Position numbers and translations under genes: made by a program. From an uncultured Bacteroidales bacterium (GTDB lineage Bacteria > Bacillota_I > Bacilli_A > ML615J-28 > CAG-698), in NCBI GenBank assembly GCA_964420625.1, contig CAYQUB010000001.1, positions 1 through 36,813 of the forward strand: a stretch of DNA of 36,813 nt, in the 5' to 3' direction. The first letter of the stretch is position 1; the number at the start of each line of letters is the position of its first letter. The notes under the pieces are model-generated. The model searched no databases and was not told the origin of the DNA. It saw only the letters and a program-made list of their open reading frames with translations. Below are positions 4,975-35,912 of this stretch, piece after piece.

Positions 4975-4976
4975 CT

Positions 4977-5672
4977 TTAGAAACCGTCCATCATTTTGGT
5001 AAACTTCTGGTAGCCTTCAAGGTTAAAACATTGCGCATGGGCATTTTTGGAAAGGGCTCCCCGAACAAAGGTCAAATGGGTGTAATAATCGAAATATCGA
5101 AACGACGGGCTGTTCATGATGAACCAGTGCTTGGAAATGGCTTCTTTCCAAAGTTCGAAACCATCGCCGCAGTTCACATAGACATAAGGGTCAAAGCCCT
5201 CGCGGTCCTCCCAGTTCTCGGCGAAATACACCGGCGCCCAATGCGGGGTTCCGGGGATCTTGCCGCCCATATCCAAAGCCGCCCAAAAAGCCGCGTTAAT
5301 GACGATCCGGTTAGTCGCCGCATGATCTTTGTGCATGGAGTTTTTCCAATGAGTGAAGATGATGTTCGGGCGGTATTTCCGAATTAAGGTCGCGACTTTG
5401 ATCCGGGCTTCGGCGTTGTCCGGCAGTTCTCCGTCTTGGTAGTCAAGCACCACCGCTTCGCCATGCAGCATCGCCGCGAAGGTTTCGGCTTCTTTCACTT
5501 TTTGAATCCGGTAATCGGCGACGGACATTCCTTTGGGGTTGCCCCGTTCGCCGGCGGTCAGCGCCAAAGTGATGATCTTATCGCCCTTTAAAGACTGAGC
5601 GGCCAAAACGCAACCGGCGGTCAGTTCCATGTCCCCAACATGGCCGCCGATGGCCAAAAAGGTTTTATTCAT
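4977..5672 (-). CDS. PIG-L / LmbE family N-acetylglucosaminyl deacetylase
   Basis: 231 aa. The N-terminus FLAIGGHVGDMELTAGC matches the metal-binding H-x-D-D-like region, and HKDH lies further downstream. The start overlaps the GNAT stop in an ATGA arrangement. Confidence 0.75.
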   Translation of the reverse strand: MNKTFLAIGGHVGDMELTAGCVLAAQSLKGDKIITLALTAGERGNPKGMSVADYRIQKVKEAETFAAMLHGEAVVLDYQDGELPDNAEARIKVATLIRKYRPNIIFTHWKNSMHKDHAATNRIVINAAFWAALDMGGKIPGTPHWAPVYFAENWEDREGFDPYVYVNCGDGFELWKEAISKHWFIMNSPSFRYFDYYTHLTFVRGALSKNAHAQCFNLEGYQKFTKMMDGF

Positions 5673-6652
5673 TTCAGTTCCTTTCTCAGGGCCACGAAGG
5701 ACTGAACGATCTTCATGCCCGCGTAAAGATATATTTCCCTCGCTTTGTTATCCGATCCGGTGAACAAAGTCATGAAAGCGGCATTGTTTTCTTTGGATTT
5801 CTGACAGAGCATGCAAAAGAGGGATTTCCCCAAACCATGGCCCTGGGCTTTCGGATGAACGCCGATTCCCCCAAGATAACCGCGGCCGCTCGGTTGGGTG
5901 AAAACCGGGCCGGTCCAGCCCAAGATCTCGCCGTCTTTTTGCGCGATCAGGATCGGATCGGGTTTTTCTTTGGCCAGATTGTTTTTCACAACGCTGCGCC
6001 AGCCTTCGTTTTGCAAGCCGTCAAACAGTTCATCAAACCCATGATGCAGAGCGGGATCATAAAAGGCGATGGTAAAGCCGTTCTTTTCGTTTTCTTTCAT
6101 CTTCTTCTTGACGTCTTCCGGAAGCTGATAGCGGCTCAGATCCAAATGATAGGCATCCTGTTGGCCGTTGACATTGTAACCGTTGGCCATCAAAAGGAAA
6201 TAATACGGGGTATTGAACGGAACCGCCGGCGCTCCCGGATGTTCGTGGTTCTTCGTCCCCGGAACCAGCCACTCCAGATTGATGGGGTTGAAAAAAAGAT
6301 TCCGAACGTAAGTTTTGCCCTTGTTTTTTAAGAATCTTTCCAATTCTTTCAAAATGAGCGAACCGATCCCGCGCCGCCAATGATCTTTGTCCACGGCGAT
6401 GCAGGTAATGTAACCGGGCGTTTGGCTCGGTTCTTTGCCTTGGTGATTGTAAGCGGCATTCCCGAAGCCGATGATTTTGCCCTTTTCGGTCACGACCAAA
6501 GACCCGTCGGGATCATAAAACGGATTGTCCAAAAATTTGCTTTGGAAAGAGGCTTTCGTAAACGGCGAATAGATGGAATAAGGAACCACGCTTTCGTTCC
6601 AAAGCGCCACGACCGCTTCGATCATCGGCGGTTCGAATTTTTTAAGGTCCAT
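5669..6652 (-). CDS. GNAT family N-acetyltransferase (two acetyltransferase-like halves)
   Basis: 327 aa with two acetyl-CoA-binding-like motifs, RRGIGSLILKELERFLKNKG and GHGLGKSLFCMLCQKSKE. A GGGAGGAAA ribosome-binding site precedes the ATG at 6652. Confidence 0.7.
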   Translation of the reverse strand: MDLKKFEPPMIEAVVALWNESVVPYSIYSPFTKASFQSKFLDNPFYDPDGSLVVTEKGKIIGFGNAAYNHQGKEPSQTPGYITCIAVDKDHWRRGIGSLILKELERFLKNKGKTYVRNLFFNPINLEWLVPGTKNHEHPGAPAVPFNTPYYFLLMANGYNVNGQQDAYHLDLSRYQLPEDVKKKMKENEKNGFTIAFYDPALHHGFDELFDGLQNEGWRSVVKNNLAKEKPDPILIAQKDGEILGWTGPVFTQPSGRGYLGGIGVHPKAQGHGLGKSLFCMLCQKSKENNAAFMTLFTGSDNKAREIYLYAGMKIVQSFVALRKELK

Positions 6653-7719
6653 TTATATTTCCTCCCTGAAAAATGACTGATGACATAGTTTCCGACTTTG
6701 GCTCTAAACGGTATCAGTTTGAGATTGTCGCGGGTCGGATGGACCCGGTTGGAAAGCATGCAAAAAGCTACTTGGTTGTCCCGGTCGATCCAAAGGTTCG
6801 TTCCCGTAAAGCCGGTGTGCTGAATGGTGTTGGGGCTGGTCAGGTCTCCCGATGAAGACAGACAGCCTTTGACGATCCATCCCAAACCCCGCGAATCGGT
6901 ATCCAAGGATATCCCGCTTTGCATCTCGACTTGTTTTTTAAACAGCAGATCCACCGTTGGTTTGGAAAGAAATACTTTTCCTTTGTATTTTCCGTCGTCA
7001 AGGATCATGCCCATGAAATGGGACAAATCGGAAACGGTGGAAAAGAGCCCGGCGTGACCGGCGACTCCGCCCAAAATGTAGGACTTCTCGTCATGCACAT
7101 GGCCGCGGACATAACCGTTATAGATCTCGTCCTGACGCAGTTCGGTCGGAGCGCATCTTTCGATGTCGGCGGGATTGTAGCCGGTATCGACCATTTCCAG
7201 CGGTTCAAAAACATTCTTTTTCGCGAATTCATCCAAAGTCTGTCCGGAGATCGCTTCAATGACGAACCCGAGCAGAATGAATCCGATGTCCGAATAAACG
7301 ATCTTCGAGTTCTTCGGATAAACCGGATCGCAGGCATAGATCCGCTCCAAACATTCATCCCGGCTGGCCAGTTTTGCGGCTTTGGACAAATCGGCCTGCA
7401 GTCCGGAAGTATGGGTCATCAGATCCCAGATGGTGATGTCTTGGTGCCGGAAATTCGGAAGATACGCGGAAACGGCATCATACAGCCGCAGTTTTCCGCG
7501 TTCCAACAGCAACATGAGGCAAGTGGTCGTGGCCACGACCTTGCTGCACGAAGCCATATCATACAGCGTATCCAAGCTGTTTGGCTCCGCCTTCGGAAAC
7601 AGACTCTTTTTCCCGAGGCTGTTCAGATAGGTCTTATCGGCCAACAGGCAATAATTGACGCCCGGGAAAACCCCTTCGTCAATCGCTTTTTGCAATAACT
7701 CTTCCAATCCTTTGATCAT
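6622..7719 (-). CDS. Beta-lactamase-fold serine hydrolase (class C / DD-peptidase-like)
   Basis: 365 aa. An S-x-x-K motif is present in YDMASCSKVVATT, YSD lies downstream (Y-x-N position), and ..GFTGT.. sits near the C-terminus (KTG-like box, here HTG). Its 3' end overlaps the GNAT start by 31 nt. Confidence 0.8.
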   Translation of the reverse strand: MIKGLEELLQKAIDEGVFPGVNYCLLADKTYLNSLGKKSLFPKAEPNSLDTLYDMASCSKVVATTTCLMLLLERGKLRLYDAVSAYLPNFRHQDITIWDLMTHTSGLQADLSKAAKLASRDECLERIYACDPVYPKNSKIVYSDIGFILLGFVIEAISGQTLDEFAKKNVFEPLEMVDTGYNPADIERCAPTELRQDEIYNGYVRGHVHDEKSYILGGVAGHAGLFSTVSDLSHFMGMILDDGKYKGKVFLSKPTVDLLFKKQVEMQSGISLDTDSRGLGWIVKGCLSSSGDLTSPNTIQHTGFTGTNLWIDRDNQVAFCMLSNRVHPTRDNLKLIPFRAKVGNYVISHFSGRKYKWTLKNSNRR

Positions 7720-7741
7720 TGATTTATTTCCTGCCTTTCAA

Positions 7742-8629
7742 TCAAAACTTATGAAGGTGGCGGCGGTAACGTTTATAGAAGTTATCGTAGCAAATTTTTT
7801 GGATGTTTTTCTCCGAAAAGCCGTGGCGGGACAGTCCCGAAAGCAATCCGGGGGTTTTGGTGGCATCCGCCAGATCCCGGATGTTCGAATTCGGAAAATC
7901 GCTCAGATAATCCATGAAGTCGAAACCGAACATGACATTGTCCACGCCCATGATCGCGATGGCTCTTTCAACATGCCCCAGGAAATGCTCGAGGTCTTGC
8001 AATTCCGGCTTTTTGGAAACAAAGCTGCTGGCGAGCGTCAGCCCGATCATGCCCCCGGCGTCTTTCAAAGCTTTTAATTGATCATCGGTCAGATTTCGCC
8101 GATGATCGCAGAGGCTCTTCAGGTTTCCGTGGGAGAAAATGATATTCCGGTGCGTGAAATTCAAAACGTCGTAAAAGCTTTTTTCATTGAGATGAGCGAC
8201 ATCGATGATCATGTCCAGCCGCTCCATTTCCCTCAAAAGTTTCTTGCCCTCTTCAGTCAGGCCCCGAGCCGGATCTCCCGCGACCCCGGTAGCGTACTTA
8301 TTTTCCTCGTTCCAGGTCAGCATCGCATGTCTGATCCCCAAATCGTATGCTTTGTTGATGTCCTCCCAATTCGGAAGGTTTCGGCACCCTTCCAAACCTA
8401 ACATGACTTCGAATTTCGGAAGCAGCTTCATGTCAATTTCCCCAAGCGCAATCTTTAGCGATTCCAGAAGATCGAAATCATCCGGCGAGTACATGGTCCA
8501 AAGCGCTCCCGAAACATCCGACTTCAAAAGCTGGGGAACATGAAAGTCCGAGAAACGGTTGCTTACTCCGGCTATTTTTTTGGTGTATAAGTCATAAAGC
8601 ATATCGCTATGGGTATCAAATATTTTCAT
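7742..8629 (-). CDS. Membrane dipeptidase family protein (peptidase M19)
   Basis: M19-type motifs are present: FDTHSDMLYDL, LGLEG, HAMLTWNEENKY, DVAHLNEKSF, FSHGN and GFDFMDY. I set the start at the ATG at 8629 (MKIFDTHSD), which is preceded by AGGAGGAAT. Confidence 0.8.
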   Translation of the reverse strand: MKIFDTHSDMLYDLYTKKIAGVSNRFSDFHVPQLLKSDVSGALWTMYSPDDFDLLESLKIALGEIDMKLLPKFEVMLGLEGCRNLPNWEDINKAYDLGIRHAMLTWNEENKYATGVAGDPARGLTEEGKKLLREMERLDMIIDVAHLNEKSFYDVLNFTHRNIIFSHGNLKSLCDHRRNLTDDQLKALKDAGGMIGLTLASSFVSKKPELQDLEHFLGHVERAIAIMGVDNVMFGFDFMDYLSDFPNSNIRDLADATKTPGLLSGLSRHGFSEKNIQKICYDNFYKRYRRHLHKF

Positions 8630-8637
8630 TATTCCTC

Positions 8638-9942
8638 CTAAAAATGGCACGTTTCGATCAAATGATCGTATGATTCGCGGTTGATGGCGATGTTGGCTTC
8701 TTTTTTGTTTACGAAGACCACGGCTCCCCGCACCAACCCGTTATAATTCATGGACATGGAATAGCAATAAGCCCCGGTGGAATAAACCACGACCGTATCC
8801 CCGTCCCGGGCTTCCGGGATCGGTATGTCTTTGGCGATGATGTCGCCCGATTCGCAACATTTCCCCACCACGTCATAGACCTTGGTTTCTTGGTTGACGG
8901 GATAATTGGCCCGGTTGGCGATCTCCACCGTATATTTGGCCTGATAAAGCGCCGGGCGGATGTTGTCAGCCATGCCGCCGTCAATGAACAGATAATTTTT
9001 TCCGCCCACGGTTTGTTTGGTTCCCCCGCAACGGTACAAAGTAAATCCCGAGTCGCCAACCAGACTTCGTCCCGGTTCGATCAATAACTTTTCCAGCTTG
9101 GTCGCATATTTTTTGTTCAGGATTTCGACGGTTTTGACGATCTTCCCCAATATGTATTCCAAATTGATTTCTTGATCGTCATCCAAGTACTTGATTCCAA
9201 ACCCGCCGCCCAAGTTCAAAACCCGGATGCTCACTTGATGGGCATCTTGGTATTTTTTGATGAAAGCCATCATCGTTTTGGCTTCTTTGGTAAAGAAACT
9301 CGGGTTGCTGACCTGCGAACCGATGTGCGCATGAAACCCGTCCAAAACCAGATAAGGGGAATCAGCATAGGCCTTGGCAATTTTTTCGATCATGGCTTCG
9401 TCATAGATCGATTCCCCGAATTTCGAAGACAGAAGCGCCGTTTGAATGTAAGCATGGGTATGGGCGCTGATTCCCGGATTGACCCGAAACAGAGTGTGGA
9501 CCACCGTTTTTTTGATTTCAGACAAATGCTTCAGTTTTATCAGTTCCGAATAATTGTCCACGACGATGTATTCCACTCCCAGAGAAATCCCCTGTTCCAA
9601 TTCTTCATCGGATTTGTTATTGCCGTGCAAAACGATGCGGTGCGGGTCAAACCCGCTTCTTTCGATCAGATGCAGATCGCCCGCGCTGACCGCGTCGATC
9701 CCAAAATGATGATCGTTTAAGATATGACATAAACGCGGGGCCAAAAAAGCTTTGGAGGCATAGATCACCTCGCAAGCAAAATGGGGGCTTTGGAAATAAG
9801 TCTCAAAGATCCGGATCTTTTCTAAAATCCCGATTTCGTCATAAACGTAAAGCGGGGTTTTAAAAGTCTGGGCGAGTTCGGAGAGTTTTCTTTCCCCAAC
9901 ATACAATTCGCCGTTTATATTTTGCATTGGTTTTGTTCTCAT
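8638..9942 (-). CDS. lysA: Diaminopimelate decarboxylase (PLP-dependent, alanine racemase-fold decarboxylase)
   Basis: 434 aa. Motifs are IYASKAF (PLP lysine), HGNNKS, GGGFGIKY, EPGRSLVGDSG, CESGD and GAYCYSMSMNYNG. The start ATG overlaps the dusB stop (ATGA). Confidence 0.8.
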   Translation of the reverse strand: MRTKPMQNINGELYVGERKLSELAQTFKTPLYVYDEIGILEKIRIFETYFQSPHFACEVIYASKAFLAPRLCHILNDHHFGIDAVSAGDLHLIERSGFDPHRIVLHGNNKSDEELEQGISLGVEYIVVDNYSELIKLKHLSEIKKTVVHTLFRVNPGISAHTHAYIQTALLSSKFGESIYDEAMIEKIAKAYADSPYLVLDGFHAHIGSQVSNPSFFTKEAKTMMAFIKKYQDAHQVSIRVLNLGGGFGIKYLDDDQEINLEYILGKIVKTVEILNKKYATKLEKLLIEPGRSLVGDSGFTLYRCGGTKQTVGGKNYLFIDGGMADNIRPALYQAKYTVEIANRANYPVNQETKVYDVVGKCCESGDIIAKDIPIPEARDGDTVVVYSTGAYCYSMSMNYNGLVRGAVVFVNKKEANIAINRESYDHLIETCHF

Positions 9943-20656: not shown

Positions 20657-20917
20657 ATGGCTGACAAAAACCGAACCAATTCCCAGATAAAATGTTCGCT
20701 GATCAACGGAAACCGGATCCTATCCATTGAATCGGAAAGCGAGAAATCGCCCCGGAACGTGGCGGTGATCCAGGACGGAAACCAGTCCGTTCTTTTCCAA
20801 GGCAATCAGCTTTTGACTTCTGAAAAAGTCTTCGAGTCTTTTTTGCAATCGGTCGATCCGGCTTCCGTCAAATACCTGGTCTTTTACCCGACCGAGTTCT
20901 TGCCGACGGATTCATGA
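20657..20917 (+). CDS. N-terminal fragment of a metallo-beta-lactamase-like (flavodiiron-type) domain: a separate small ORF or a frameshifted 5' part of the next gene
   Basis: I set the start at the ATG at 20657 (MADKNRT), which follows GGAGG by 7 nt. The track start at 20630 lies inside the TGgTATAAT -10 element (20626-20631). The ORF ends ..VKYLVFYPTEFLPTDS*, and its TGA overlaps the next ATG (ATGA). Confidence 0.5.
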   Translation: MADKNRTNSQIKCSLINGNRILSIESESEKSPRNVAVIQDGNQSVLFQGNQLLTSEKVFESFLQSVDPASVKYLVFYPTEFLPTDS

Positions 20918-22677
20918 AAGTCTTCGGAACTCATGATCTGCATCCGATCATCGTCACCGATGCCCTGACCGCCGGAACTTGGAAAGATTATTCGCCGGAA
21001 GCCGAATTCTTTGTCATCGATGAAACCATGCGGCTGGAGCTCAGCCCCAGCCATGTTTTGCGTTTCATCCGCACGCCGTTCTTCGGAAGCCCGAATTCGT
21101 TTCTGACTTATGACGATACCAGCCATACGGTCTTTTCGGGAGATCTGTTCTCGGCTCCCCGCTTTCCGGGAGCCGCGGAAAACGATCCTTTAAAAGCCAT
21201 GGCCATGGCCCATGAAAAAATCCTTCCGAGCAGCGACTTTCTGAAACCGATCATCAAAACTATCAAAAAATTGGAAATTGATATCATCATTCCGAATTTC
21301 GGGCCGCTCATCGTCAAAGATGAAGTCCGGAAAACTTTGGATTTTTTACAAACCCAAATTTTTTACAACAGCAGCATCTTGGTTAAAAGTTCCACTCAGA
21401 ACCGCCGGATCTACGATTACGTGACTTTGGGCAATCAAGTCATCGCCCGTTTAAAATCCCTGTACAGCAAAGAGGAAGTTCTTCGGATTTTCCAGGGCAC
21501 TCCGATCGCCATTGATCCGGAAACGATGGAGATCACCGGCACGCTGCTTCCCGGTTATAAATTCTGGAATCAGCTGTTTGAAGTCATCTTCAATAAAAAA
21601 GGTCCGGAATGGCTGGTGGTTTTGGAACCGATGGTCAATAAACTGGGCCGAACCTACAACATCAAAAAACCGGCCGTTTATTCATCATCGCTGATCACAT
21701 CGAAATTCGAAAACATCGCTTTGCAATCGAAAGTAAACTATCTTCAGGATAATTTGGACCGGGCCACCGATAAACTTCTTCACGATCCGGTGACCGGGGC
21801 CTACAATGAATATTTCTTAAGAAACTATTTAAGCCAGCACATCGCCGAAGCGAACCAAACCAAATCCTCCGAGGACTTCGCGCTGCTTTTCATTGACATT
21901 GACAACATCCGGAAACTGAATCTCATGTATTCCAAAGAGACCGGCAACGAAACGATGCGCAACTTCCATTATCTTCTCAATCAGATCAAAGATGAAAACC
22001 AGATGGTCTTCAAACGCAACGGGCCGGGTTTTGTGCTCTTCTGCGCCAAAAGCACTTTTGAGGAAGCCGTCAAAAAAGCCAATCGGATCCGCAACGCCGT
22101 CGCTGATTCCGATTCGTTCGTGGAAAAGATCACCGTTTCGGTCGGGATAACCCGTTTTCTGGAATTCACTTCCTCTGAACGCCAGGCCGAAGGCTTTTCG
22201 GAGATTATCTATGACCGGGGCGAGACCCGGGTCAAGACCGCTTATTCCAAAGGCCAAAACCGGCTGATCGACGAAAAAACCAAGAACGTCTTCCTGTCGA
22301 TCGGAAAGATCCTGATCGTCGATACCGACGAGATCGTCCAAAACATCTTCTCCAACGCCCTGAAAAACAATTTCTATGAAGTCGTGGTCGCCAAAAACGG
22401 CATCGAAGCCTTAAGCGCTTTTGATGCCAATCAGATCGATTTCATCATTTGTGAAAAAAACATCCCGAAGCTGGACGGATTCAAACTGAAAGCCAAGCTG
22501 AACGAAACGCCCGAGACCCAAACCATTCCGTTCGTGCTGACCACTTTCAACAAAAATCTGGCCATCGTCAATACCGCCAACGAACTGAACGTTGATTTCA
22601 TCCTCACGAAACCGCTCATCATCGAAGAAGTCGTCGGTCTCGTCAAAAGGATCCTTTCCCGGAGAGCCCATCCATGA
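20914..22677 (+). CDS. Multidomain signalling-like protein with the rest of the metal-site-less MBL-like domain, a coiled coil, a degenerate GGDEF domain and a C-terminal pseudo-receiver
   Basis: LRFIRTPFFGSPNSFLTYDDTSHTVFSGDLFS resembles the L.FI.TP..HWPDS..TY....LFS.D.FG block of flavodiiron MBL domains but lacks the histidines. The GGDEF-like region is DPVTGAYNEYFL...LLFIDIDNIRKLN...VFKRNGPGFVLF, with no GG(D/E)EF. The REC-like region is KILIVDTDEIV...DFIICEKNIPKLDG...FVLTT...ILTKP, with Glu at the phospho-acceptor position. Confidence 0.75.
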   Translation: MKVFGTHDLHPIIVTDALTAGTWKDYSPEAEFFVIDETMRLELSPSHVLRFIRTPFFGSPNSFLTYDDTSHTVFSGDLFSAPRFPGAAENDPLKAMAMAHEKILPSSDFLKPIIKTIKKLEIDIIIPNFGPLIVKDEVRKTLDFLQTQIFYNSSILVKSSTQNRRIYDYVTLGNQVIARLKSLYSKEEVLRIFQGTPIAIDPETMEITGTLLPGYKFWNQLFEVIFNKKGPEWLVVLEPMVNKLGRTYNIKKPAVYSSSLITSKFENIALQSKVNYLQDNLDRATDKLLHDPVTGAYNEYFLRNYLSQHIAEANQTKSSEDFALLFIDIDNIRKLNLMYSKETGNETMRNFHYLLNQIKDENQMVFKRNGPGFVLFCAKSTFEEAVKKANRIRNAVADSDSFVEKITVSVGITRFLEFTSSERQAEGFSEIIYDRGETRVKTAYSKGQNRLIDEKTKNVFLSIGKILIVDTDEIVQNIFSNALKNNFYEVVVAKNGIEALSAFDANQIDFIICEKNIPKLDGFKLKAKLNETPETQTIPFVLTTFNKNLAIVNTANELNVDFILTKPLIIEEVVGLVKRILSRRAHP

Positions 22678-23987
22678 TCATCCCTTATCAAGTCATTGTC
22701 TGGATCCTGGAGGGCTTGGGGGCCATCGCCGGCCTATTGATCATCGTCATTTTTCTGAACAAACTGCTTTTGCGTTACCGGATCTGGGAATCAAGACAAA
22801 TCAAAAAATATCTGGTGGCGAAATACCTTCAGAAACAATCCATCCAGAAGCATTTCTCAAAACGCAAACTGACCGACGAATTCATCAACATTTGCGAACA
22901 GACCGAACTTGATGACGACACCCTGGCTACGGTCGTCGCGGATTTCGACCGGCAGCAGATCATTGCTTATCATCTTTTCCGTCTGAATTCGCTTAAACCG
23001 ACCGTCCGGAAAGCCTCCGCTCATTACCTGGCTTTTTTTCGAAGCCGAAAAGCTTTGGACGGCTTGAAAAAGCGGCTGGTCATTGAAAAAAACGACAGCG
23101 TCAAGCTCTACCTGCTTAACTCGCTCAAAACCAATCTGGACGAATCGGTGGACATCATCATCGAAAGTTTGGTCGGTGCCAGCGCTTTTTACCGGCGCCG
23201 GGCCATCGAGATCATCACTCATCATCACAATCGTTTCAGTTACGCCATACAGGCGGCTTTGAACCGCAGCGAGTTTGAGATCAAAGAATTGGTCGCCGCT
23301 TTCGCGGCCGGTTACAAAAACGACGATCTGAAAGCCTATTTGCAAAAAGAACTGATCAGTCTCGAAGCCTTCTATGACGGCAACCAATCCAATCAGCTGC
23401 GGTACGATCCTTTAAAATTCAACGTTGACGCCTACTACTTCTCGATCTTGCGAACGCTGGTCGACGTTTATGACGAAAACATTTTCGTTGACCGCTATCT
23501 CACCCATTCGAAAAGCGAGGTTCGCCGGATCGTCATCGACGCCAAGAGCAAACGCGAAAACTTCGATGGCATCAAAAGCATTTTGGAGGGCTGCGACGGC
23601 AGCGACATGGATTTCTACCGGGTCGAAGTGATCACCAGGATCGCCGAGATCAACCGCGATTATTACCTGAACCTGGTCAGCATTTTTCAAAATCCCGGCC
23701 ATGTTCACCAACAAAAAGTCATTGCGTCGGTCCTGTCCTTCCGAACCGAGTACCTGATTTTGAAACTAAGTTCGCCGCAGCGGACCCAGATCATCGAATC
23801 CCTGAAACTTCTGGTCAGTTTCGGACTGACCGCCGACTTGATCGACTTCATGAACCAAAACAAAGATTTGGGGATCGAAAATGATTTGTTTCAGATCCTA
23901 AAGATCTATTATTCGGCTGACGAAAGGCTGAAAAAAGAACTGCACGTCTATTTGCGGCCCGAGATTTTGAAACGCATGGGAATCTAA
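22674..23987 (+). CDS. Membrane-anchored HEAT/ARM-like repeat protein
   Basis: An N-terminal TM helix is present (VIVWILEGLGAIAGLLIIVIFL). All-helical repeats follow, with HEAT-like strings: TVRKASAHYLAFFRSRKALDGLKKRLVIEKNDSVKLYLLNSL, AFYRRRAIEIITHH and SEVRRIVIDA. The ATGA start overlaps the upstream stop. Confidence 0.6.
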   Translation: MIIPYQVIVWILEGLGAIAGLLIIVIFLNKLLLRYRIWESRQIKKYLVAKYLQKQSIQKHFSKRKLTDEFINICEQTELDDDTLATVVADFDRQQIIAYHLFRLNSLKPTVRKASAHYLAFFRSRKALDGLKKRLVIEKNDSVKLYLLNSLKTNLDESVDIIIESLVGASAFYRRRAIEIITHHHNRFSYAIQAALNRSEFEIKELVAAFAAGYKNDDLKAYLQKELISLEAFYDGNQSNQLRYDPLKFNVDAYYFSILRTLVDVYDENIFVDRYLTHSKSEVRRIVIDAKSKRENFDGIKSILEGCDGSDMDFYRVEVITRIAEINRDYYLNLVSIFQNPGHVHQQKVIASVLSFRTEYLILKLSSPQRTQIIESLKLLVSFGLTADLIDFMNQNKDLGIENDLFQILKIYYSADERLKKELHVYLRPEILKRMGI

Positions 23988-24062
23988 AAAGAAACCTACG
24001 CGGCTCCGGTTCGGGAACGATCAAAAGTCGAAAAAAAGAAAGTTCAGTGGCTTAGGCGCCTT

Positions 24063-25568
24063 TTGTTCGTGGCTTTAGTTTTCTTTCCAATCGTTTTTTT
24101 GATCCGTTACAACCTGGGGCTGCTGTCCAAAAGCCTTTTGGAGATCCTGATTGCTTACGCGGTTGACATCAACTATTACATCGTTTTCTATTACGTCGCC
24201 GTCAATCTGATCTACCTTCTGCTGGTTTTGTTATCGATGAGTGGATCCCGGGAACAATCCCGTTTATGGAGTTTTAAAAACAAAAACATGCTTTTTGAAT
24301 CGGAAATGCTGTCTTCGATCTCCATCATCGCCCCCGCTTACAACGAGGAACTGTCCATCATCGACAGCGTCAATTCCCTGCTGAACCTAAATTATCCGCA
24401 GTATGAAGTCATCGTCGTCAATGACGGCTCAAAAGACAAGACCCTCCAAAAACTGATCGAATATTTCAAACTGGAACGCAAAAACCTCATTGTTTCCCAA
24501 AAACTGCCGACCATGCACGTGCGCGGCGTTTACCGAAACAAACTGACTCCATATCTGACCGTCATCGATAAAGACAACGGCGGAAAAGCCGATGCCCTGA
24601 ATACCGGCATCAATTATGCGGTCAGCGAATACATCTGCGGAATCGACGCCGATTCGATGTTGGAAGTCAATTCCCTGCTCAAACTGATGTCCGTGACCAT
24701 CGATCACAAATATCCGACCATTTGTTTGGGCGGAAACATTTTCCCGGCCAACGGCTGCGAGATCGACCGGGGCCAGGTCGAAAAAAAAGGCCTTCCGAAA
24801 ACTTTGATCACCAGACTTCAGGCCATCGAATACCTGCGGGCCTTCACGTCCGGACGGATCGGCTGGGCCAAACTGCGGTCGCTTCTGATCGTTTCCGGGG
24901 CCTTCGGTTTATTCCACCGGAACACCATGATCGAAGCCGGGGGTTACCTGACCAGCAGCGGCATCTTCAAAAAAGACACGGTCGGCGAAGACATGGAATT
25001 GGTCGTCCGGCTGTCCCGGAAAGCCCTGGAAGAAAAAAAGCCCTACCAGATCGACTACGTTTACAATGCTCATTGCTATACCGAAGTACCGAATGACTGG
25101 AAGAGTCTGTTCAAACAGCGCGACCGCTGGCATCGCGGCCTCATCGACATTCTCTCCTTCCATCGCCATCTGATCTTCAACCCGCGGTACAAAACCGTCG
25201 GGACCGTCGGCTTGCCCTATTTCCTCATTTTCGAAATGATCGGACCGCTTTTCGAAGCGCAGGGTTACCTCATGCTCATCCTGTCCATCGTTTTCGGACT
25301 GCTTGATCTGAACATCCTTTTGGCTTTGTTCTCGGTATCGGTCATGATGGGGATCATCGTCTCTCTGCTTTCGCTTCTGGCGACCGAGCGGGAATCCAAA
25401 TATCTGGGTTTTTCGGACACTTTGACTTTGGTAATCTTCGGGATCATCGAAAATCTCGGCTACCGTCAGCTCATGAGTCTGTACCGGGTCAAAGGATACT
25501 TCTCCGCCATGCGCGAAACCGGGCTTTGGGGAACCGTCACCCGCCGCGGCTTCAAAAAAAACAAATGA
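24063..25568 (+). CDS. Processive family-2 glycosyltransferase (PgaC/IcaA/NodC-like polysaccharide synthase) with N- and C-terminal TM segments
   Basis: Motifs are IIAPAYNEE..., VIVVNDGSKD, NGGKADALNTG, GIDADS, GEDMEL and QRDRWHRG (the QxxRW motif). There are two TM segments before and three or more after the catalytic domain. The start is TTG, with only a weak ribosome-binding site. Confidence 0.85.
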   Translation: MFVALVFFPIVFLIRYNLGLLSKSLLEILIAYAVDINYYIVFYYVAVNLIYLLLVLLSMSGSREQSRLWSFKNKNMLFESEMLSSISIIAPAYNEELSIIDSVNSLLNLNYPQYEVIVVNDGSKDKTLQKLIEYFKLERKNLIVSQKLPTMHVRGVYRNKLTPYLTVIDKDNGGKADALNTGINYAVSEYICGIDADSMLEVNSLLKLMSVTIDHKYPTICLGGNIFPANGCEIDRGQVEKKGLPKTLITRLQAIEYLRAFTSGRIGWAKLRSLLIVSGAFGLFHRNTMIEAGGYLTSSGIFKKDTVGEDMELVVRLSRKALEEKKPYQIDYVYNAHCYTEVPNDWKSLFKQRDRWHRGLIDILSFHRHLIFNPRYKTVGTVGLPYFLIFEMIGPLFEAQGYLMLILSIVFGLLDLNILLALFSVSVMMGIIVSLLSLLATERESKYLGFSDTLTLVIFGIIENLGYRQLMSLYRVKGYFSAMRETGLWGTVTRRGFKKNK

Positions 25569-25598
25569 AAATCGCTATTTTTCAATAGCGATTTTTTG
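25568..25598. terminator. Bidirectional terminator between convergent genes
   Basis: An ATCGCTATT-TTTC-AATAGCGAT hairpin has a T-run on the plus strand and an A-rich flank upstream. It sits between the stops at 25568 (+) and 25601 (-). Confidence 0.6.
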
Positions 25599-25600
25599 AA

Positions 25601-26410
25601 TTATAAGTAATCGTCGTAAATGTTCTTCTGCCATCTTTCGCTGGCCAAGAACTCGGTATCGTCTTTTTCGCGTTTGATCTTCGAATAATGTTTGGTCCCG
25701 CGGGCCACGACTTCATAAGAAGTTACTTTCCCGAGGGTCGAAAGAACGTTTGTTACCATTGAAAAGTCGAACGACGAGCAGGAGAAAATATCGAAATAAA
25801 TCAGTTTGTCATCGTAATCATAATGCAAGGCGATGTGGCTTTGGGCGATCAGGATGATCCCGGACAGATAATGGGTTTTGTTGACGGTGCTCTTGATGAC
25901 GAACGGCCGGGTGATCGGCGTCATGCCGATCTCATAAACCAGTTTCTCCAAGAAATCAAACATGTTTTCCATGGTGATCCGGTTCTCGTAAGACAGCTCG
26001 GCCATGACATGGGGGCCGAAATCTTCTTTCGGATCATACGGGAGCGTGTTGAAGACATTGATGTCCCGGTCCCGGATCTCCAGCGTCGAGATCGTTTCAT
26101 TGTACGGGAGTTTTTCCAGAAGGTAGTTCTTCAAAACTTCGGTATCGAAATCCTCGGAAAAAATGTCAACGAAATAGCATTGGCGAAACGGGAAAGTATG
26201 AATGGTGATGTGTCCGCCTTCCAAAAAGACGAACGAGCTGATGCCGTCGTCTTCTTTGACTTTTCCGTAATAATACGGAACCAGCGACGGCGGCGCCACC
26301 GGGGTGAGTTTTAAGACATAGGGGATTTCATTGACGATTTTATTGATGTAGCGGATGTCATCGAGCAGGGTTTGCGTGGAACCGTAGCAGTCCAACATGA
26401 CATGTTTCAT
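25601..26410 (-). CDS. Tandem-duplicated S-adenosylmethionine decarboxylase-like (pyruvoyl enzyme fold) protein; candidate arginine or ornithine decarboxylase
   Basis: 269 aa, made of two halves of about 130 aa that each resemble class 1 AdoMetDC. Half 1 reads HVMLDCYG...GISSFVFLEGGHITIHTFP..YFVDIFS. Half 2 reads PHVMAELSY...LSGIILIAQSHIALHYD..IYFDIFSC. The start overlaps the agmatinase stop (TAATG). Confidence 0.7.
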   Translation of the reverse strand: MKHVMLDCYGSTQTLLDDIRYINKIVNEIPYVLKLTPVAPPSLVPYYYGKVKEDDGISSFVFLEGGHITIHTFPFRQCYFVDIFSEDFDTEVLKNYLLEKLPYNETISTLEIRDRDINVFNTLPYDPKEDFGPHVMAELSYENRITMENMFDFLEKLVYEIGMTPITRPFVIKSTVNKTHYLSGIILIAQSHIALHYDYDDKLIYFDIFSCSSFDFSMVTNVLSTLGKVTSYEVVARGTKHYSKIKREKDDTEFLASERWQKNIYDDYL

Positions 26411-27306
26411 TAATCTTTTCCTCCAATTTTAGGTGTTTTTGCGCATAACGATGCGAATACTTCATAAAGCAGTTTTAAGGCCGTCCAGGACGTGATGTCG
26501 TTGCTATCCAGTTTCGGCGACACTTCCATGATGTCCATGGCTTTCACCGGCAGGTTTTCCACCAAAAAAGTCATGATTTGTAAAGCTCCTTGGGAAGTGA
26601 TCCCAAAGGCTTCCGGCGTTCCGGTCCCCGGCGCGAACGACGGATCGATGGCATCAATGTCCAAAGACAGATAGACTTGGAAACGTTCGTCAAACTTGTC
26701 TTTTAAATGACGGATGGCCTCAAGTCCGAATTCATTGATTTTGGATGCTTTGATGACTTCGATCTCCGGATGCTCGGAAAACAGTTCCAGTTCCTGAAGC
26801 TCAAATCCCCGCCCGGCGAGCAGAACAATGTTCTCGCTTTTGTATCCCCGTTCGATGGCCCGGAAATTCGGGCAGGCATGGGAGAATTTGCTTCCGTCAT
26901 AAACATCGCAGATGTCGGGATGAGCATCGATGTGGATGATGGCCGGGATTTTGCCGTCCCGGATCGATCGGTCGTAAAAAGCCGCTTCCAGGGGAATGGA
27001 ACAAGAATGATCCCCTCCGAAGAATACCGAGAATTTATGAAGATCCAAAATCCCGGCGGCTTTGGCTTCGATCTTCGAAAACGGCGTGCGGTTATGGCCG
27101 ATGTTTCCAAAATCATACAGTTTCAGAGAGGTCAGATCGATCCCTTCTTTGGAAGCCGGAGGAAGATATCCGGATAGTTTTCGGATCCGGCTCGGGGCTC
27201 TTCCCGCGCCTTTTCCCACCGAAGCGTTGCGATCCAGGGCAATGCCCGCGATCGTCACGTTGGCTTTTCCCAAATCTTCGGTCAATAAATCTCGCCAAGG
27301 TTTCAT
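26410..27306 (-). CDS. Agmatinase / ureohydrolase family protein
   Basis: 298 aa with all the Mn-binding motifs: GGDHSCSIP, IHIDAHPDI and LSLDIDAIDPSFAPGTGTPE, plus MEVSP near the C-terminus. Confidence 0.8.
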   Translation of the reverse strand: MKPWRDLLTEDLGKANVTIAGIALDRNASVGKGAGRAPSRIRKLSGYLPPASKEGIDLTSLKLYDFGNIGHNRTPFSKIEAKAAGILDLHKFSVFFGGDHSCSIPLEAAFYDRSIRDGKIPAIIHIDAHPDICDVYDGSKFSHACPNFRAIERGYKSENIVLLAGRGFELQELELFSEHPEIEVIKASKINEFGLEAIRHLKDKFDERFQVYLSLDIDAIDPSFAPGTGTPEAFGITSQGALQIMTFLVENLPVKAMDIMEVSPKLDSNDITSWTALKLLYEVFASLCAKTPKIGGKD

Positions 27307-27347: not shown

Positions 27348-27375
27348 ATTATATCATTTTTTGTTTTTTTTTCAA
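27348..27375 (-). promoter_or_regulatory. Candidate promoter of the agmatinase / AdoMetDC-like pair
   Basis: On the minus strand: TTGAAA, a 16 nt spacer, then TGaTATAAT. A GAAGGGAAA ribosome-binding site lies ahead of the ATG at 27306. Confidence 0.5.
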
Positions 27376-27385
27376 AGTTTTTAAT

Positions 27386-27414
27386 TTAAAAAGAGCCTTC
27401 GGTTTTTCGAAGGT
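27386..27414 (-). terminator. Rho-independent terminator of the lipoprotein-ABC operon
   Basis: On the minus strand, a CCTTCG-AAAAAC-CGAAGG hairpin is followed by CTCTTTTT, just after the stop at 27424. Confidence 0.6.
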
Positions 27415-32628: not shown

Positions 32629-32657
32629 ATTATAACAAATTTCTTTGGTTTTTTCAA
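32629..32657 (-). promoter_or_regulatory. Near-consensus promoter overlapping the tadA stop codon
   Basis: On the minus strand: TTGAAA (32657-32652, containing the tadA TGA), a 17 nt spacer, then TATAAT (32634-32629) with an extended TG. The predicted start falls at the first bases of the 18-bp hairpin arm. Confidence 0.45.
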
Positions 32658-33118
32658 GTCTCGGCCTTTTCGCGCAGTTTCTGAAAAAATTCTTTCATCA
32701 TGGTGCTGATTTCAACTTCATCAAGTCCCGAAGTCGCTTCAATTTGATGATTGAACCGGGTTTCTTTCGAAAGATCCATGATGCTTCCCAAAACCCCGAA
32801 CTTCGGCTCTTTGGCTCCGTAAACGACCCGTTTGATCCGGGCTTGAAAAATGGCTCCGGTGCACATTAGGCAAGGTTCCAAAGTAACGTAAAGCGTGGCG
32901 TCGTCCAAAAAACTCCGGCCCGTTTTTTTACAGGCCTTGTTGATGGCGATGATCTCCGCGTGCGCCAAAGCGCTCTTCTTGGCCACTCGCTGATTGTAGG
33001 CTCGGGCGATGACATGACCGTCTAACTCGATCACGCACCCGACCGGAACTTCATTTTTGCCTGCGGCGATCTTGGCTTGCCTGATCGCTTCTTTCATGAA
33101 AGTCAAATCATTTCCCAT
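32654..33118 (-). CDS. tadA: tRNA-specific adenosine(34) deaminase
   Basis: Motifs are [17 protein letters not shown] and [13 protein letters not shown] set the start at the ATG at 33118 ([15 protein letters not shown]), which matches the usual TadA N-terminus. The longer track ORF runs into tdk. Confidence 0.85.
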
Positions 33119-33701
33119 TCGGTTTTCCGGGGACAACATGGCAATGGCGGCACCGCGCCTCATATTGTTCCTGCGCTCCGACCAAGATGATCGGATCCGT
33201 GTAATTGGCCGGTTTTCCGTTGATGATCCTTTGCGTCCTCGTCGCCGGGGCGCCGCAAACCTGGCAGATGGCGTCCAGTTTGGTGACGAATTCCGCTCTC
33301 GCCAAAAGATCGGGCATGACTCCGAACGGTTCGCCGCGGAAATCTTTGTCCAGCCCGGCCACGATCACCCGCACGCCGCGGTTGGCCAAATCTTCGCAGA
33401 TGTCGATGAGGCCCCGAGACATGAACTGGGCTTCGTCGATGGCGATCGCGTAGGGCAATTTCGTTCCCAAATGTTCGTAAATTTCGCGCGGTTCGGTAAT
33501 CGCGATGGATTTCGCCCGCCCGTTGTTGTGCGATACCACTTCGTTGCTGCTGTAGCGAGTATCGATCAGCGGTTTAAAAACGACCACGCTCTTCTTCGCG
33601 TAATCGATCCTTTTGATCCTTCGCAGCAGTTCTTCCGTTTTCCCGGCGAACATGCTGCCCGCGATCACTTCGATCCAACCATCTTTGACTTGTAAATCCA
33701 T
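33108..33701 (-). CDS. tdk: Thymidine kinase
   Basis: 197 aa. Motifs are the P-loop [20 protein letters not shown] and the zinc ribbon C.VCG...C..C near the C-terminus. An AAGGAGA ribosome-binding site is present. Confidence 0.9.
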
Positions 33702-33793
33702 TTTACCATCTCCTTGAAAACATTATATAATATTCCGACCCGATTGGAAAGAATTTTTTTGCTTTTTTCCGGCCCCGGTTTCGCAAATTTTTC

Positions 33794-33822
33794 TTGACTT
33801 AAAAAACAAATTGGGGTATAAT
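33794..33822 (+). promoter_or_regulatory. Promoter of rpmE
   Basis: TTGACT (33794-33799), a 17 nt spacer, then TATAAT (33817-33822). Confidence 0.6.
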
Positions 33823-33875
33823 AACGAAGGTAACTTACTATAGGTTCAAATACTCTATGGCGGAAGGAGAAAAAT

Positions 33876-34106
33876 ATGAAAAAAGGAATTCATCCGAAAT
33901 ACAACACCGTAACGGTTGTTTGCACCACTTGTGGCAGCACCTTTGAAACCGGATCGGTTTTAAAAGAGATGCGGGTCGACACTTGCTCAAAATGTCATCC
34001 GTTCTACACCGGGCAGCAAAAGTTCATTCAAGCGGCTGGCCGGGTCGAAAGATTCAATAAACGCATGGCTCAAAAGCAAGAGCCAAGCCCAGACTCAAAC
34101 AAATAA
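33876..34106 (+). CDS. rpmE: 50S ribosomal protein L31 (zinc-ribbon type A)
   Basis: MKKGIHPKY...[14 protein letters not shown]...[36 protein letters not shown] ribosome-binding site is present. Confidence 0.9.
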
Positions 34107-34122
34107 GTTTGAGTTTTTTTGT
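34093..34122 (+). terminator. Rho-independent terminator of rpmE
   Basis: An ACTCAAAC-loop-GTTTGAG hairpin spans the stop codon and is followed by a T7 run. Confidence 0.6.
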
Positions 34123-34133
34123 TCTTTTTTTCA

Positions 34134-34171
34134 TTTTATTGGACATTCCAAATTAAAAATGTCCAATAAAA
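34134..34171. repeat. Perfect 13-bp inverted repeat (TTTTATTGGACAT / ATGTCCAATAAAA), with a third ATTGGACAT copy at 34190-34198
   Basis: Read directly from the sequence. The spacer is 12 nt. The repeat lies between rpmE and the 3' end of the deaminase-fusion gene. Confidence 0.5.
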
Positions 34172-34245
34172 ACTTATTTTAAATCTTTCATTGGACATTT
34201 TTTGCAAGAAATGGCTTAAAATCAAATAAAATCTTCAATACTCGA

Positions 34246-35730
34246 TTACTTCAATAATTTATATCGTCTTCCTCTATTGTCGCCTTCTGCACCTATCAGT
34301 CTCAGTTCCACCAACCGATTTAAATCTCGATAAGCGGATTTTAGGTCTCTCCCAGATTCTTTCGCATATTCTGTCTTTGTTGTGATTTTCCTCAGTTTCA
34401 AATATTGATAAGCAAAGAATTCATTCTCGTTCAAAGAAGAAAACACTCCATTAAGCGACTTTTGATAACTCTTAAAGGATCTATAAAAGGTTACAATTAA
34501 ATTGGGGTTGTTAAACTCGATATTTGGGTTATACAGAGCCTTCTTCGAATCAAATAATAAATTTTTAAAGCATTCCATTCCCTTTCTGTTTCCTTCATAA
34601 AAATGTATTTTCGAAAACAAAAAAGATAGTTTTGGATTACGCTGCAAAGTTGGCGCAGAAAAGTCCCGTAACTGGTCAATTGAAATTGGCGGAGTTGGAG
34701 ATCCGGGACTAAGTACCTCAATTTTGTCATTATCTATCGAAATTCGAATTTGGGCATCTTCTCTGCTATAATCCCGATGAATCACCGCATTTAAAACCGC
34801 TTCGCGTAAGGCTCTCAAAAGTGGTTCCGATCCGGTTAGCCCACTTACGACAAATTGGGAATTAACCACTGTTGAAAGCCATTGGAAAACTGCCTGAATC
34901 TCCAAGATCAACGGTCCAGAAAATGATTTGTTTGAACCGAAAGCAGAAGCTTTTATTTCGAATTGGGGGCATGTTTGGGAAGGAAATTTCCCAAACAGCA
35001 AAACTGCTGTTCGCGAAAAAGTATGAATGGCTTTTCCATTTTTCGACTCATTGTTTGTTATTCCGGAAATTTCCAAAAAATGCCAAAAATCCGGAGAATC
35101 ATATTCGGTTTTTGAACCCGAAAGTTCAAAATATTTTTGAAAAGCATCTTTTGAAAAATCTGAATAAAAATCCATCTTCGGAACAATTACATCAAGGTAA
35201 TGGACTTTCCCGTTTTCTTTTTGTTTTGTGTCCTCAAAATAAGCCCGCAAAGAAGCATCATCCAGAAAAGCTCGATTTTCATTAATTATTTCTTCTTGAA
35301 GGTCCTTGTCAAACATTTCAACTGCTATTCCATTATCCAATAAATACTCGTGTCCTTTTCCCGAGACAGAGGGATGAGGGTCTTGTATTCCCATGTATAC
35401 TTTTTTAATCCGTGCATTAACTATTCTTTCGGCGCAGGGAAGTTTTCCTTCTCCACGTGAATTGGGCGCACACGGTTCCAAAGTTGCAAACAAAATTGCT
35501 TCCTCAAGCTTCCTTGTTCGAAGTTTCTTATCAATTAGAGTGTATTCAGCATGATCGCCGGATCGAAATTCCCCCCGATATGCGGATTCCATTGTACCAT
35601 CATCAAAAAGAATAACCGCACCAACTTTTGGGGGAACCTTTCCGTCTTTCCTTTTTTCACAGCTTGACTGTTTCATGACATTTACCGCCAATGTCATGGC
35701 TTCTCGGATCTTTTTCTGATCATTAATCAT
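34246..35730 (-). CDS. Fusion protein with an N-terminal RibD-like zinc deaminase domain, a partial AlbA_2 region, an HATPase_c_4-type domain and a C-terminal winged helix
   Basis: Deaminase motifs are GDHAEYTLI and TLEPCAPNSRGEGKLPCAERI...VYMGIQDPHPSVSGKGHEYLLDNGIAVE. Then come ..TAVLLFGKFP..SGPL.., LREAVLNAVIHRDYS, IEVLSPG, LQRNPKL and YEGNRKGM. The C-terminal HTH-like region is ITTKTEYAKESGRDLKSAYRDLNRLVELRLI. I set the start at the ATG at 35730 (MINDQKK), which is preceded by AAGGGGGA. The track start at 35769 lies next to a TGtTATAAT -10 element (35775-35783). Confidence 0.75.
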   Translation of the reverse strand: MINDQKKIREAMTLAVNVMKQSSCEKRKDGKVPPKVGAVILFDDGTMESAYRGEFRSGDHAEYTLIDKKLRTRKLEEAILFATLEPCAPNSRGEGKLPCAERIVNARIKKVYMGIQDPHPSVSGKGHEYLLDNGIAVEMFDKDLQEEIINENRAFLDDASLRAYFEDTKQKENGKVHYLDVIVPKMDFYSDFSKDAFQKYFELSGSKTEYDSPDFWHFLEISGITNNESKNGKAIHTFSRTAVLLFGKFPSQTCPQFEIKASAFGSNKSFSGPLILEIQAVFQWLSTVVNSQFVVSGLTGSEPLLRALREAVLNAVIHRDYSREDAQIRISIDNDKIEVLSPGSPTPPISIDQLRDFSAPTLQRNPKLSFLFSKIHFYEGNRKGMECFKNLLFDSKKALYNPNIEFNNPNLIVTFYRSFKSYQKSLNGVFSSLNENEFFAYQYLKLRKITTKTEYAKESGRDLKSAYRDLNRLVELRLIGAEGDNRGRRYKLLK

Positions 35731-35912
35731 CAATCTTTCCCCCTTCCAAATTATTCCAATTGTTTTCAATTTGGATTATAACATAATAGCAAAAATAAAG
35801 AAATCTTTTTTAAAATTAAAAACTCACAATTTTCGGAAATTTCCCATAGATATTTATGTTTCTCAAAACTTTTTTCGTTTCTCAGTCTTAGAAATTTGTT
35901 AAACCGGATTTT

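Follow-up and report, generated by a model that had tools for sequence, protein, structure and literature searches.

The 36.8-kb stretch of DNA analyzed here (contig CAYQUB010000001.1, positions 1 to 36,813; "the window") carries a ureohydrolase gene and, directly downstream of it, a gene that encodes two S-adenosylmethionine decarboxylase (AdoMetDC)-fold domains in one chain. Together, the two genes form a compact promoter-to-terminator bicistron. As a whole, the observations are best explained by a bicistronic putrescine module built around a pyruvoyl enzyme with a composite active site, in which arginine would be converted to agmatine and agmatine to putrescine, and we hold this explanation with moderate confidence. 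The first half of the fused protein lacks the serine from which a pyruvoyl group is made, but it is not simply dead; from its conserved residues, it appears to supply a catalytic His and a Ser to a single active site. The two genes and the two domains of the fused protein lie as follows.

25601-26410, minus strand: fused AdoMetDC-fold proenzyme gene, 269 amino acids (aa), 31.5 kDa, with two PF02675 domains
26030-26410, minus strand: N-terminal domain, residues 1-127, without the pyruvoyl Ser and without the Cys, keeping Ser58 and ITIH71TFP
25604-26029, minus strand: C-terminal domain, residues 128-269, with predicted self-cleavage between Gln190 and Ser191, and with His192, His196, and Cys211
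26410-27306, minus strand: ureohydrolase gene (arginase fold, agmatinase-like), 298 aa, PF00491

Both halves of the fused protein, scanned separately, exceed the PF02675 gathering score of 25 bits (N half, 54.4 bits, E = 1.8e-14; C half, 33.4 bits, E = 6e-8). A profile-profile comparison of the family's N-domains with its C-domains gives a probability of 97.5% (E = 8.7e-12) with 106 columns in register, and it pairs the N-domain Gly-Gly with the C-domain Gln/Glu-Ser. These two checks agree with an earlier note on this DNA, made from its letters, which had read the protein as two homologous AdoMetDC domains fused head to tail. No match to PF01536, the class 2 AdoMetDC family, was reported for the 269-aa protein in the Pfam scan. 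The AlphaFold2 (AF2) model (pLDDT, 87.3; pTM, 0.85) repeats a beta-alpha-beta4-alpha-beta topology twice and places Gly65-Gly66 and Gln190-Ser191 each in the turn joining the third and fourth strands. In Foldseek searches, each domain matches the SpeD of Thermotoga maritima with a target-normalized TM score of ~0.8.

The T. maritima enzyme (PDB 1tlu) reads VVVISE62-S63-HLTIH68TWPE72...DLFTC83 around its active-site residues and contains the cleavage motif that the earlier note had given for Thermotoga-type SpeD, VVVISESHLTIHTWPE. Its key positions correspond to the following residues of the window protein.

T. maritima Ser55: N half Ser58, C half Ser183
T. maritima Glu62: N half Gly65, C half Gln190
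T. maritima Ser63 (pyruvoyl): N half Gly66, C half Ser191
T. maritima His68: N half His71, C half His196
T. maritima Pro71: N half Pro74, C half Tyr199
T. maritima Glu72: N half Phe75, C half Asp200
T. maritima Cys83: N half Glu86, C half Cys211

At the codon level, Gly65 (26216-26218) and Gly66 (26213-26215) occupy the cleavage position of the first half, within the interval 26210-26221 in which a Gly had been said to replace the serine. The second half keeps the Ser, as had also been noticed, with Ser191 encoded by AGC at 25838-25840 and preceded by Gln190; Cys211 is at 25778-25780. The set of AdoMet_dc superfamily residues, Ser, His68, and Cys83, is complete only as a composite, with Ser191 and Cys211 coming from the C-domain and His71 from the N-domain.

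This division of residues between the halves is kept across the family. Among 58 two-domain sequences (54 cluster representatives and four genome loci), the equivalent of the pyruvoyl-forming Ser63 is present in 58/58 C-domains and in 1/58 N-domains, and the counts for the Cys83 equivalent are the same. The His68 equivalent is instead found in 58/58 N-domains and 45/58 C-domains, and the Ser55 equivalent is Ser or Thr in 57/58 N-domains and 33/58 C-domains. Four divergent members (P0167, P0197, P0153, and P0161) have Val, Phe, or Tyr in place of the C-domain His and keep the N-domain His. C-domain Ser191, His192, and Cys211 are invariant in all 58 of these sequences and in all 120 close homologues. 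The serine stands only in the second half, as first described for the window protein, in 57 of the 58 and 119 of the 120. The reciprocal retention of Ser and Cys versus His therefore fits an arrangement in which the two halves form one composite active site, the mirror image of that in human AdoMetDC.

Under the mechanism suggested by these alignments, the single 269-aa chain would amount to a pseudo-heterodimer, with two AdoMetDC-fold domains of class 1b. The C-terminal domain would self-cleave between Gln190 and Ser191, leaving a pyruvoyl group at the N terminus of an alpha chain (predicted residues 191-269, 9.4 kDa) and releasing a beta chain (predicted residues 1-190, 22.1 kDa), and it would also supply Cys211. 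The N-terminal domain, unable to make a pyruvoyl because it has Gly-Gly at the site, would serve as a built-in partner and would donate His71 and Ser58, which correspond to His68/Ser55 in T. maritima and His243/Ser229 in the human enzyme, across the sheet interface. One close homologue, P0098 (51% identical to the window protein), is the sole member of the 120 with a Ser at the N-domain cleavage position, LLEGSHITIHTFP; this might represent either two pyruvoyl sites or a neutral reversion.

A search of 5.8 billion proteins gives 255 homologues, nearly all of them 263 to 270 aa long. Most come from metagenome-assembled genomes (MAGs) labeled "Bacilli bacterium" or of Acholeplasmataceae type and are named S-adenosylmethionine decarboxylase; an exact-sequence look-up of the window protein returned no record. 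A HMMER search of 1.84 billion representatives gives 605 matches at E <= 1e-3, and ~54 of the best 150 have two domains, while the matches in a phage collection were single-domain only, with no two-domain protein. We also scanned one genome per GTDB species and kept 80 loci, of which 35 are full-length two-domain loci. Their hosts are Bacilli, Anaeroplasmataceae, Clostridia, Myxococcota, Cloacimonadota, Aminicenantes, Peregrinibacteria, and the isolate Alkalibaculum sporogenes. All 35 share an N-domain GGH-x-T-x-HTF(P/S) motif, a DFGPH linker, and the C-domain motifs IA(E/Q)SHI(A/S)xH and D(I/L)FSC.

The nearest locus (L001), from Caryophanales (formerly "Bacillales") bacterium UBA2253, is syntenic with the window and 87% identical to it in DNA. 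The fused genes of the two genomes differ at 65 synonymous and 4 nonsynonymous codons, leaving 98.5% aa identity. These differences fall in both domains, and the Ser-less N half is therefore under strong constraint and is not decaying. When the operon (window 25601-27306) is compared with its counterpart (L001:9105-10810), the ureohydrolase is just 84% identical and the fused protein is 98.5% identical, so that constraint is very unequal inside the operon.

A compact two-domain subfamily of 223 to 242 aa was also found (L039:199-870, L040:9983-10654, and L043:9974-10702). Its N-domain reads GDNFHFTCHTFS, without the Ser, and its C-domain reads QLIAESHISIH, in which the Gln at -5 resembles a diagnostic residue of the SpeDC ornithine decarboxylases (ODCs). 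The three loci have no polyamine neighbors.

Relationships among the domains were examined in a distance-based neighbor-joining (NJ) tree made with our own numpy script and 200 bootstrap replicates, for which the SpeDC and SpeD1 reference sequences were read by optical character recognition from a supplementary figure. The N-domains are monophyletic (96%), as are the C-domains (98%), and this points to a single ancient fusion as the founder of the family. The nearest sequences to both halves, at 27 to 29% identity, form a very large clade of single-domain proteins, which begin with FGPHLMLDxYGC and share the loop insertion. For the N-domain, identity is 29% to this insertion-bearing clade, ~23% to canonical SpeD, and 19% to the SpeD1 of D. 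phosphitoxidans. For the C-domain, mean identity is 20 to 22% to SpeDC and 27% to the clade whose gene context is that of SpeDA, the single-domain AdoMetDC-derived arginine decarboxylases (ADCs) known from C. corticalis, V. chlorellavorus, and DPANN archaea (PMC10407285). For the single-domain relatives, neither a profile search nor a cluster look-up brought up the experimentally characterized SpeDA accessions PIN80235, PIN84875, WP_181385235, WP_119321511, or PIS27863. No characterized SpeDA accession is placed in the NJ tree, and the likeness to SpeDA runs through the single-domain context clade.

The signals that delimit the bicistron were read on the same strand as its genes, and they are given here in the direction of transcription.

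27396-27413, minus strand: terminator-like hairpin, upstream of the promoter, closing the preceding ABC-transporter gene
27348-27375, minus strand: ahead of the ureohydrolase gene, a putative sigma-70-like promoter (TTGAAA-16 nt-TATAAT, extended TG) with 11/12 hexamer matches
26408-26424, minus strand: coupling junction read from the sequence, with a GGAGGA Shine-Dalgarno at 26419-26424 and TAATG at 26408-26412
25568-25595, minus strand: intrinsic-terminator-like hairpin with a 12-bp stem and a T run, directly after the stop codon of the fused gene

The promoter call is a consensus match alone. At the junction, the stop codon TAA (26412-26410) and the start codon ATG (26410-26408) have one base in common, which is the TAATG overlap of the two open reading frames (ORFs) that had been reported, and the GGAGGA sequence lies 8 nt ahead of the ATG of the fused gene.

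The co-translated partner matches PF00491 with 205.9 bits. Its binuclear-Mn ligand motifs (GGDHS, DAHPD, SLDIDAIDP, and the Glu of MEVSP) align with those of solved ureohydrolases, and the statement that all of its Mn ligands are intact is thus upheld. Against the arginase model, the partner scores 89.8 bits (cutoff, 227.6).

Given this partner, the best reading of the fused enzyme is that it is an L-arginine decarboxylase, which we consider probable from gene context. The fused enzyme would convert L-arginine to agmatine, the ureohydrolase would convert agmatine to putrescine and urea, and the two genes would make up a bicistronic putrescine module. In 13/13 Bacilli-clade loci, the next gene upstream is an orthologous agmatinase-like gene, and the other flanking genes all differ. 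Agmatine deiminase (PF04371, 297 bits; TIGR03380, 315 bits) is encoded in the same-strand block of four further loci (L015, L019, L022, and L030), and a fifth (L017) has an arginase-family gene at the position where those four have agmatine deiminase. In P0167 (L085:1221-3029; GCA_947631875.1, contig CANRMV010000128.1), the two-domain unit is fused to a PAD_porph agmatine deiminase in one 602-aa ORF.

The insertion-bearing single-domain clade has a similar context. An arginase-family gene adjoins half of its sampled members, and three members have speD-like, deoxyhypusine-synthase-like (speY), and speB genes consecutively; speD-like/speB clusters also occur. SpeD homologues from speY/speB-type clusters have been shown to be ADCs (PMC10407285; PMC13625781). 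The linkage of the fused family to agmatine-using enzymes, comprising a SpeB-like partner in the 13 Bacilli loci, aguA in four loci, and one aguA fusion, is as in SpeDA. The route from arginine through agmatine to putrescine predicted in the earlier note is therefore the one best supported, by gene context and by one fusion protein; what that prediction had named as the substrate is still a deduction.

Several points weigh against this reading. The partner scores slightly under the cutoff of the TIGR01230 agmatinase model (171.0 bits; cutoff, 174.3), and its L011 orthologue scores 159.1 bits. Its best sequence match in the PDB is the "probable agmatinase 2" of Synechocystis (7esr), which we take to be the guanidine hydrolase Sll1077. 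The fusion to agmatine deiminase was seen in one protein only, encoded on a 3.1-kb MAG contig, and polyamine neighbors are missing from ~17 of the 22 fused loci that are more distant. The adjacency of SpeB and AguA is suggestive but not decisive, because both feed the spermidine pathway too. Furthermore, the Bacilli clade has Gln where a Glu, a possible base in processing, is expected, and the composite-site model is based on homology and conservation statistics, not on measured distances. Finally, the C-domain has affinities with the ornithine-decarboxylating homologues: in the NJ tree, the C-domain clade joins SpeDC at 58% bootstrap in a group that also includes the compact fused subfamily, and like SpeDC it has an aromatic residue following the His and, six positions ahead of the Cys, the diagnostic Tyr.

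These affinities speak for the first alternative, in which the protein is a SpeDC-like ODC whose C-domain acts on L-ornithine and whose partner is an arginase supplying ornithine or is functionally unrelated. A protein with a dead N-domain and a live C-domain can be an ODC, since an engineered S79A SpeD1-SpeDC fusion of this kind retains ODC activity (PMC10407285). However, assignment of the C-domain to SpeDC was rejected on its diagnostic residues, of which about two of four are present: Gln(-5) and Thr(-1) are absent (IILIAQ-S in the C-domain versus TQLIET-S in SpeDC), Tyr is present, and Phe is replaced by Tyr. The partner scores 171 bits on the agmatinase model versus 90 on the arginase model, the C-domain is on average less similar to SpeDC than to the SpeDA-context clade (20 to 22% versus 27% identity), and agmatine deiminase neighbors and an agmatine deiminase fusion would make no sense for an ODC. 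We consider this alternative unlikely, although it is the best placed of the three that we weighed.

Next in order, and also improbable, is that the protein is a genuine AdoMetDC, as its homologues are named in their sources. It would then provide decarboxylated AdoMet to a spermidine synthase whose gene lies elsewhere, with putrescine coming from SpeB. Its only family matches are PF02675 and TIGR03330, speB and speD are both genes of the spermidine pathway, and HTFP is kept in the Bacilli-clade N-domain. Nevertheless, the window protein scores 64.8 bits on TIGR03330, under the cutoff of 75.65. Glu247 of human AdoMetDC binds the ribose hydroxyls. The position of this Glu (T. maritima Glu72) is hydrophobic (Phe, Leu, or Ile) in the His-donor N-domain and variable in the other domain, and the equivalent of HTWPE is HTFPF in the N-domain and HYDYD in the C-domain. 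The Pro of this motif, which is invariant in true AdoMetDCs (Li et al., PMC10407285), is retained in just 13/58 N-domains. No spermidine synthase gene (speE) is present among the ORFs of suitable size in the 36.8-kb window, in keeping with the observation that none lies nearby, and none recurs within ~7 kb of the 35 fused loci. An agmatine deiminase fusion would, for an AdoMetDC, link nonconsecutive steps of a pathway.

Least probable is a pyruvoyl decarboxylase for some other substrate (lysine, or a guanidino or carboxy-polyamine intermediate) or a vestigial N-domain pocket now serving as a regulatory ligand site; the fusion of P0197 to a radical SAM domain, the N-terminal domains of no known identity in P0153 and P0161, a conserved gene triad between aguA and the fused gene, the lack of polyamine neighbors at most distant loci, and an invariant and unexplained N-domain Asp7 and PYYYG motif would suit such a role, but all informative context indicates agmatine, and the characterized amino-acid-decarboxylating SpeD homologues all use Arg or Orn.

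The gene triad belongs to a conserved same-strand block found in Clostridia and Cloacimonadota MAGs (L015:488-9034, also L017, L019, L022, and L030). Its order is agmatine deiminase (arginase family in L017), a protein of ~640 aa, a KGGVGR-type AAA ATPase-like protein of ~292 aa, a protein of ~760 aa, the fused speD-like protein, and a protein of ~515 aa. Pfam, NCBIfam, and PADLOC assign no identity to the three intervening genes or to the last gene, and for the triad, PADLOC and NCBIfam gave nothing significant except the resemblance to KGGVGR-type ATPases. Other domain combinations in the wider family include the two-domain unit of P0197 with radical SAM, N-terminal extensions of 250 to 335 aa in P0153 and P0161, and a single SpeD-like domain joined to a deoxyhypusine-synthase-like domain in P0231. 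A single-domain relative from a speY/speB context (L048:9998-10426) scores 93 bits on TIGR03330, over the cutoff of 75.65, and the name "adenosylmethionine decarboxylase" may often be wrong in its clade of at least 7,900 proteins.

Elsewhere in the window, 2760-9942 on the minus strand is a run of genes of the cell-wall or peptide-recycling type, encoding GHL10, LD-carboxypeptidase, PIG-L deacetylase, double GNAT, beta-lactamase-family, and M19 dipeptidase proteins and, last, the diaminopimelate decarboxylase LysA. The LysA gene (8638-9942, minus strand) encodes the sole pyridoxal phosphate-dependent decarboxylase in the window; it was considered as a possible ODC or ADC and set aside on its TIGR01048 score of 407.7 bits. 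On the plus strand, 20914-25568 encodes an ODP/GGDEF/receiver protein, a HEAT-repeat membrane protein, and a PgaC/IcaA-like family 2 glycosyltransferase (GT2) synthase, which looks like a c-di-GMP-linked exopolysaccharide module converging on the operon terminator. Two deaminase-domain genes, one MafB19-like and the other encoding a 507-aa protein with deaminase and HATPase_c_4 domains, lie at 32654-35769 on the minus strand, and the GC content drops to 0.37 at 34 to 36 kb. This region may be a foreign or defense-type island.

Taken more broadly, the family may represent an unrecognized structural class of the AdoMetDC fold, present in the genomes of at least dozens of species (~54 half-identity clusters), that originated when a SpeDA-like gene underwent a tandem duplication of its own, followed by complementary degeneration in the orientation opposite to that of eukaryotic AdoMetDC, and many genes annotated as SAM decarboxylase in Bacillota MAGs would then be ADCs. 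We regard this wider proposal as evenly balanced between being right and being wrong. If it is right, the route of fusing and then splitting labor between the halves, which has been proposed as the origin of the eukaryotic enzyme, has been taken twice by bacteria, in mirror image. The family carries the name AdoMetDC in Bacilli (gut Anaeroplasmataceae and Mollicutes-like MAGs included), Clostridia, Myxococcota, and other groups, with agmatine as the more likely product, and pathway reconstructions that follow this name would falsely predict spermidine synthesis and overlook a putrescine route. The reciprocal retention of residues (Ser and Cys in one half and His in the other, each 58/58) also allows a clean cis/trans test of their roles in processing and catalysis.

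Among known systems, the family is of a kind with the decarboxylases and fusions derived from AdoMetDC that Li et al. (2023) described, as a variant with a dead N-domain and a live C-domain. Closest to it among described proteins are the SpeD1-SpeD2 fusions, known from D. phosphitoxidans, "Ca. Omnitrophica" OLB16, and Victivallis vadensis (Li et al. 2023, PMC10407285); they combine a live AdoMetDC as N-domain with a C-domain that either is degraded or functions as an ODC, and speE follows the gene (PMC10407285). The window protein resembles them in having two class 1b SpeD-homologous domains in one chain of ~270 to 320 aa, and it resembles the V. vadensis fusion in that one domain is degraded and a single pyruvoyl is left. 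It differs in that the naturally degraded domain is C-terminal in those fusions and N-terminal here. A SpeD1 domain is an active AdoMetDC that carries the pyruvoyl Ser; the N-domain of the present family has the Ser in only 1/120 and 1/58 sequences. The published fusion genes lie upstream of speE, and the window gene lies downstream of an agmatinase-like gene and is followed by a terminator and a convergent glycosyltransferase gene. The fusion is most simply taken to be independent of the SpeD1-SpeD2 fusions, because the N-domain has 19% identity to SpeD1 versus 29% to the insertion-bearing single-domain clade and because its partner is agmatinase-like; the earlier suggestion of an independent fusion is thereby strengthened. 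No description of a natural fused SpeD with a dead N-domain and a live C-domain was found in the full-text literature searched; in the work of Li et al. (2023), such a protein was made by mutation alone (S79A). The family also bears on the model in which eukaryotic AdoMetDC originated from a fusion with one degraded domain (Li et al. 2023, PMC10407285), since degeneration is evidently possible in either domain.

Like SpeDA, the window protein retains Ser, His, and Cys, and the genes of both groups cluster with speB, speY, or aguA. SpeDA proteins, however, are homodimers of ~120- to 150-aa chains with two pyruvoyls and two active sites, while the window protein is a fused heterodimer for which one site is predicted.

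In the trypanosomatid AdoMetDC/prozyme pair (PDB 5tvm), a dead paralogous unit likewise pairs with a live one; there, the dead unit is a separate class 2 polypeptide and acts allosterically, whereas in the window protein it is joined in cis and would complete the active site. PDB 5tvm is a weak Foldseek match to the AF2 model.

A further parallel in architecture is human AdoMetDC (AMD1; PDB 1jl0 and 1msv), although the Foldseek match is weak (~290 aligned columns, E of ~1e-3, query-normalized TM score of 0.38 to 0.49). Both are single-chain pseudo-dimers of class 1b-like halves, and the window protein is predicted to share the single pyruvoyl and single site of the human enzyme. In both, the half without the pyruvoyl Ser keeps a TIHxxP(E) motif; this half gives the His and the Ser in the human enzyme and would do so in the window protein. 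In the PDB sequences of the human enzyme, LSE67-S68-SMFVS...KTC82 lies in the N half, with no His five residues past the Ser, and WTIH243ITPE247 lies in the pyruvoyl-less C half. Ser68 and Cys82 are thus N-terminal, and His243 and Glu247 C-terminal, a polarity opposite to that of the window protein, as the earlier note had pointed out. Processing of the human enzyme requires His243 and Ser229, the latter corresponding to Ser55 of T. maritima (PMC3975893). Apart from the reversed order of its halves, the window protein has lost the ribose-binding Glu and probably acts on a different substrate. On these comparisons, the family would be a natural and independently evolved mirror image of eukaryotic AdoMetDC.

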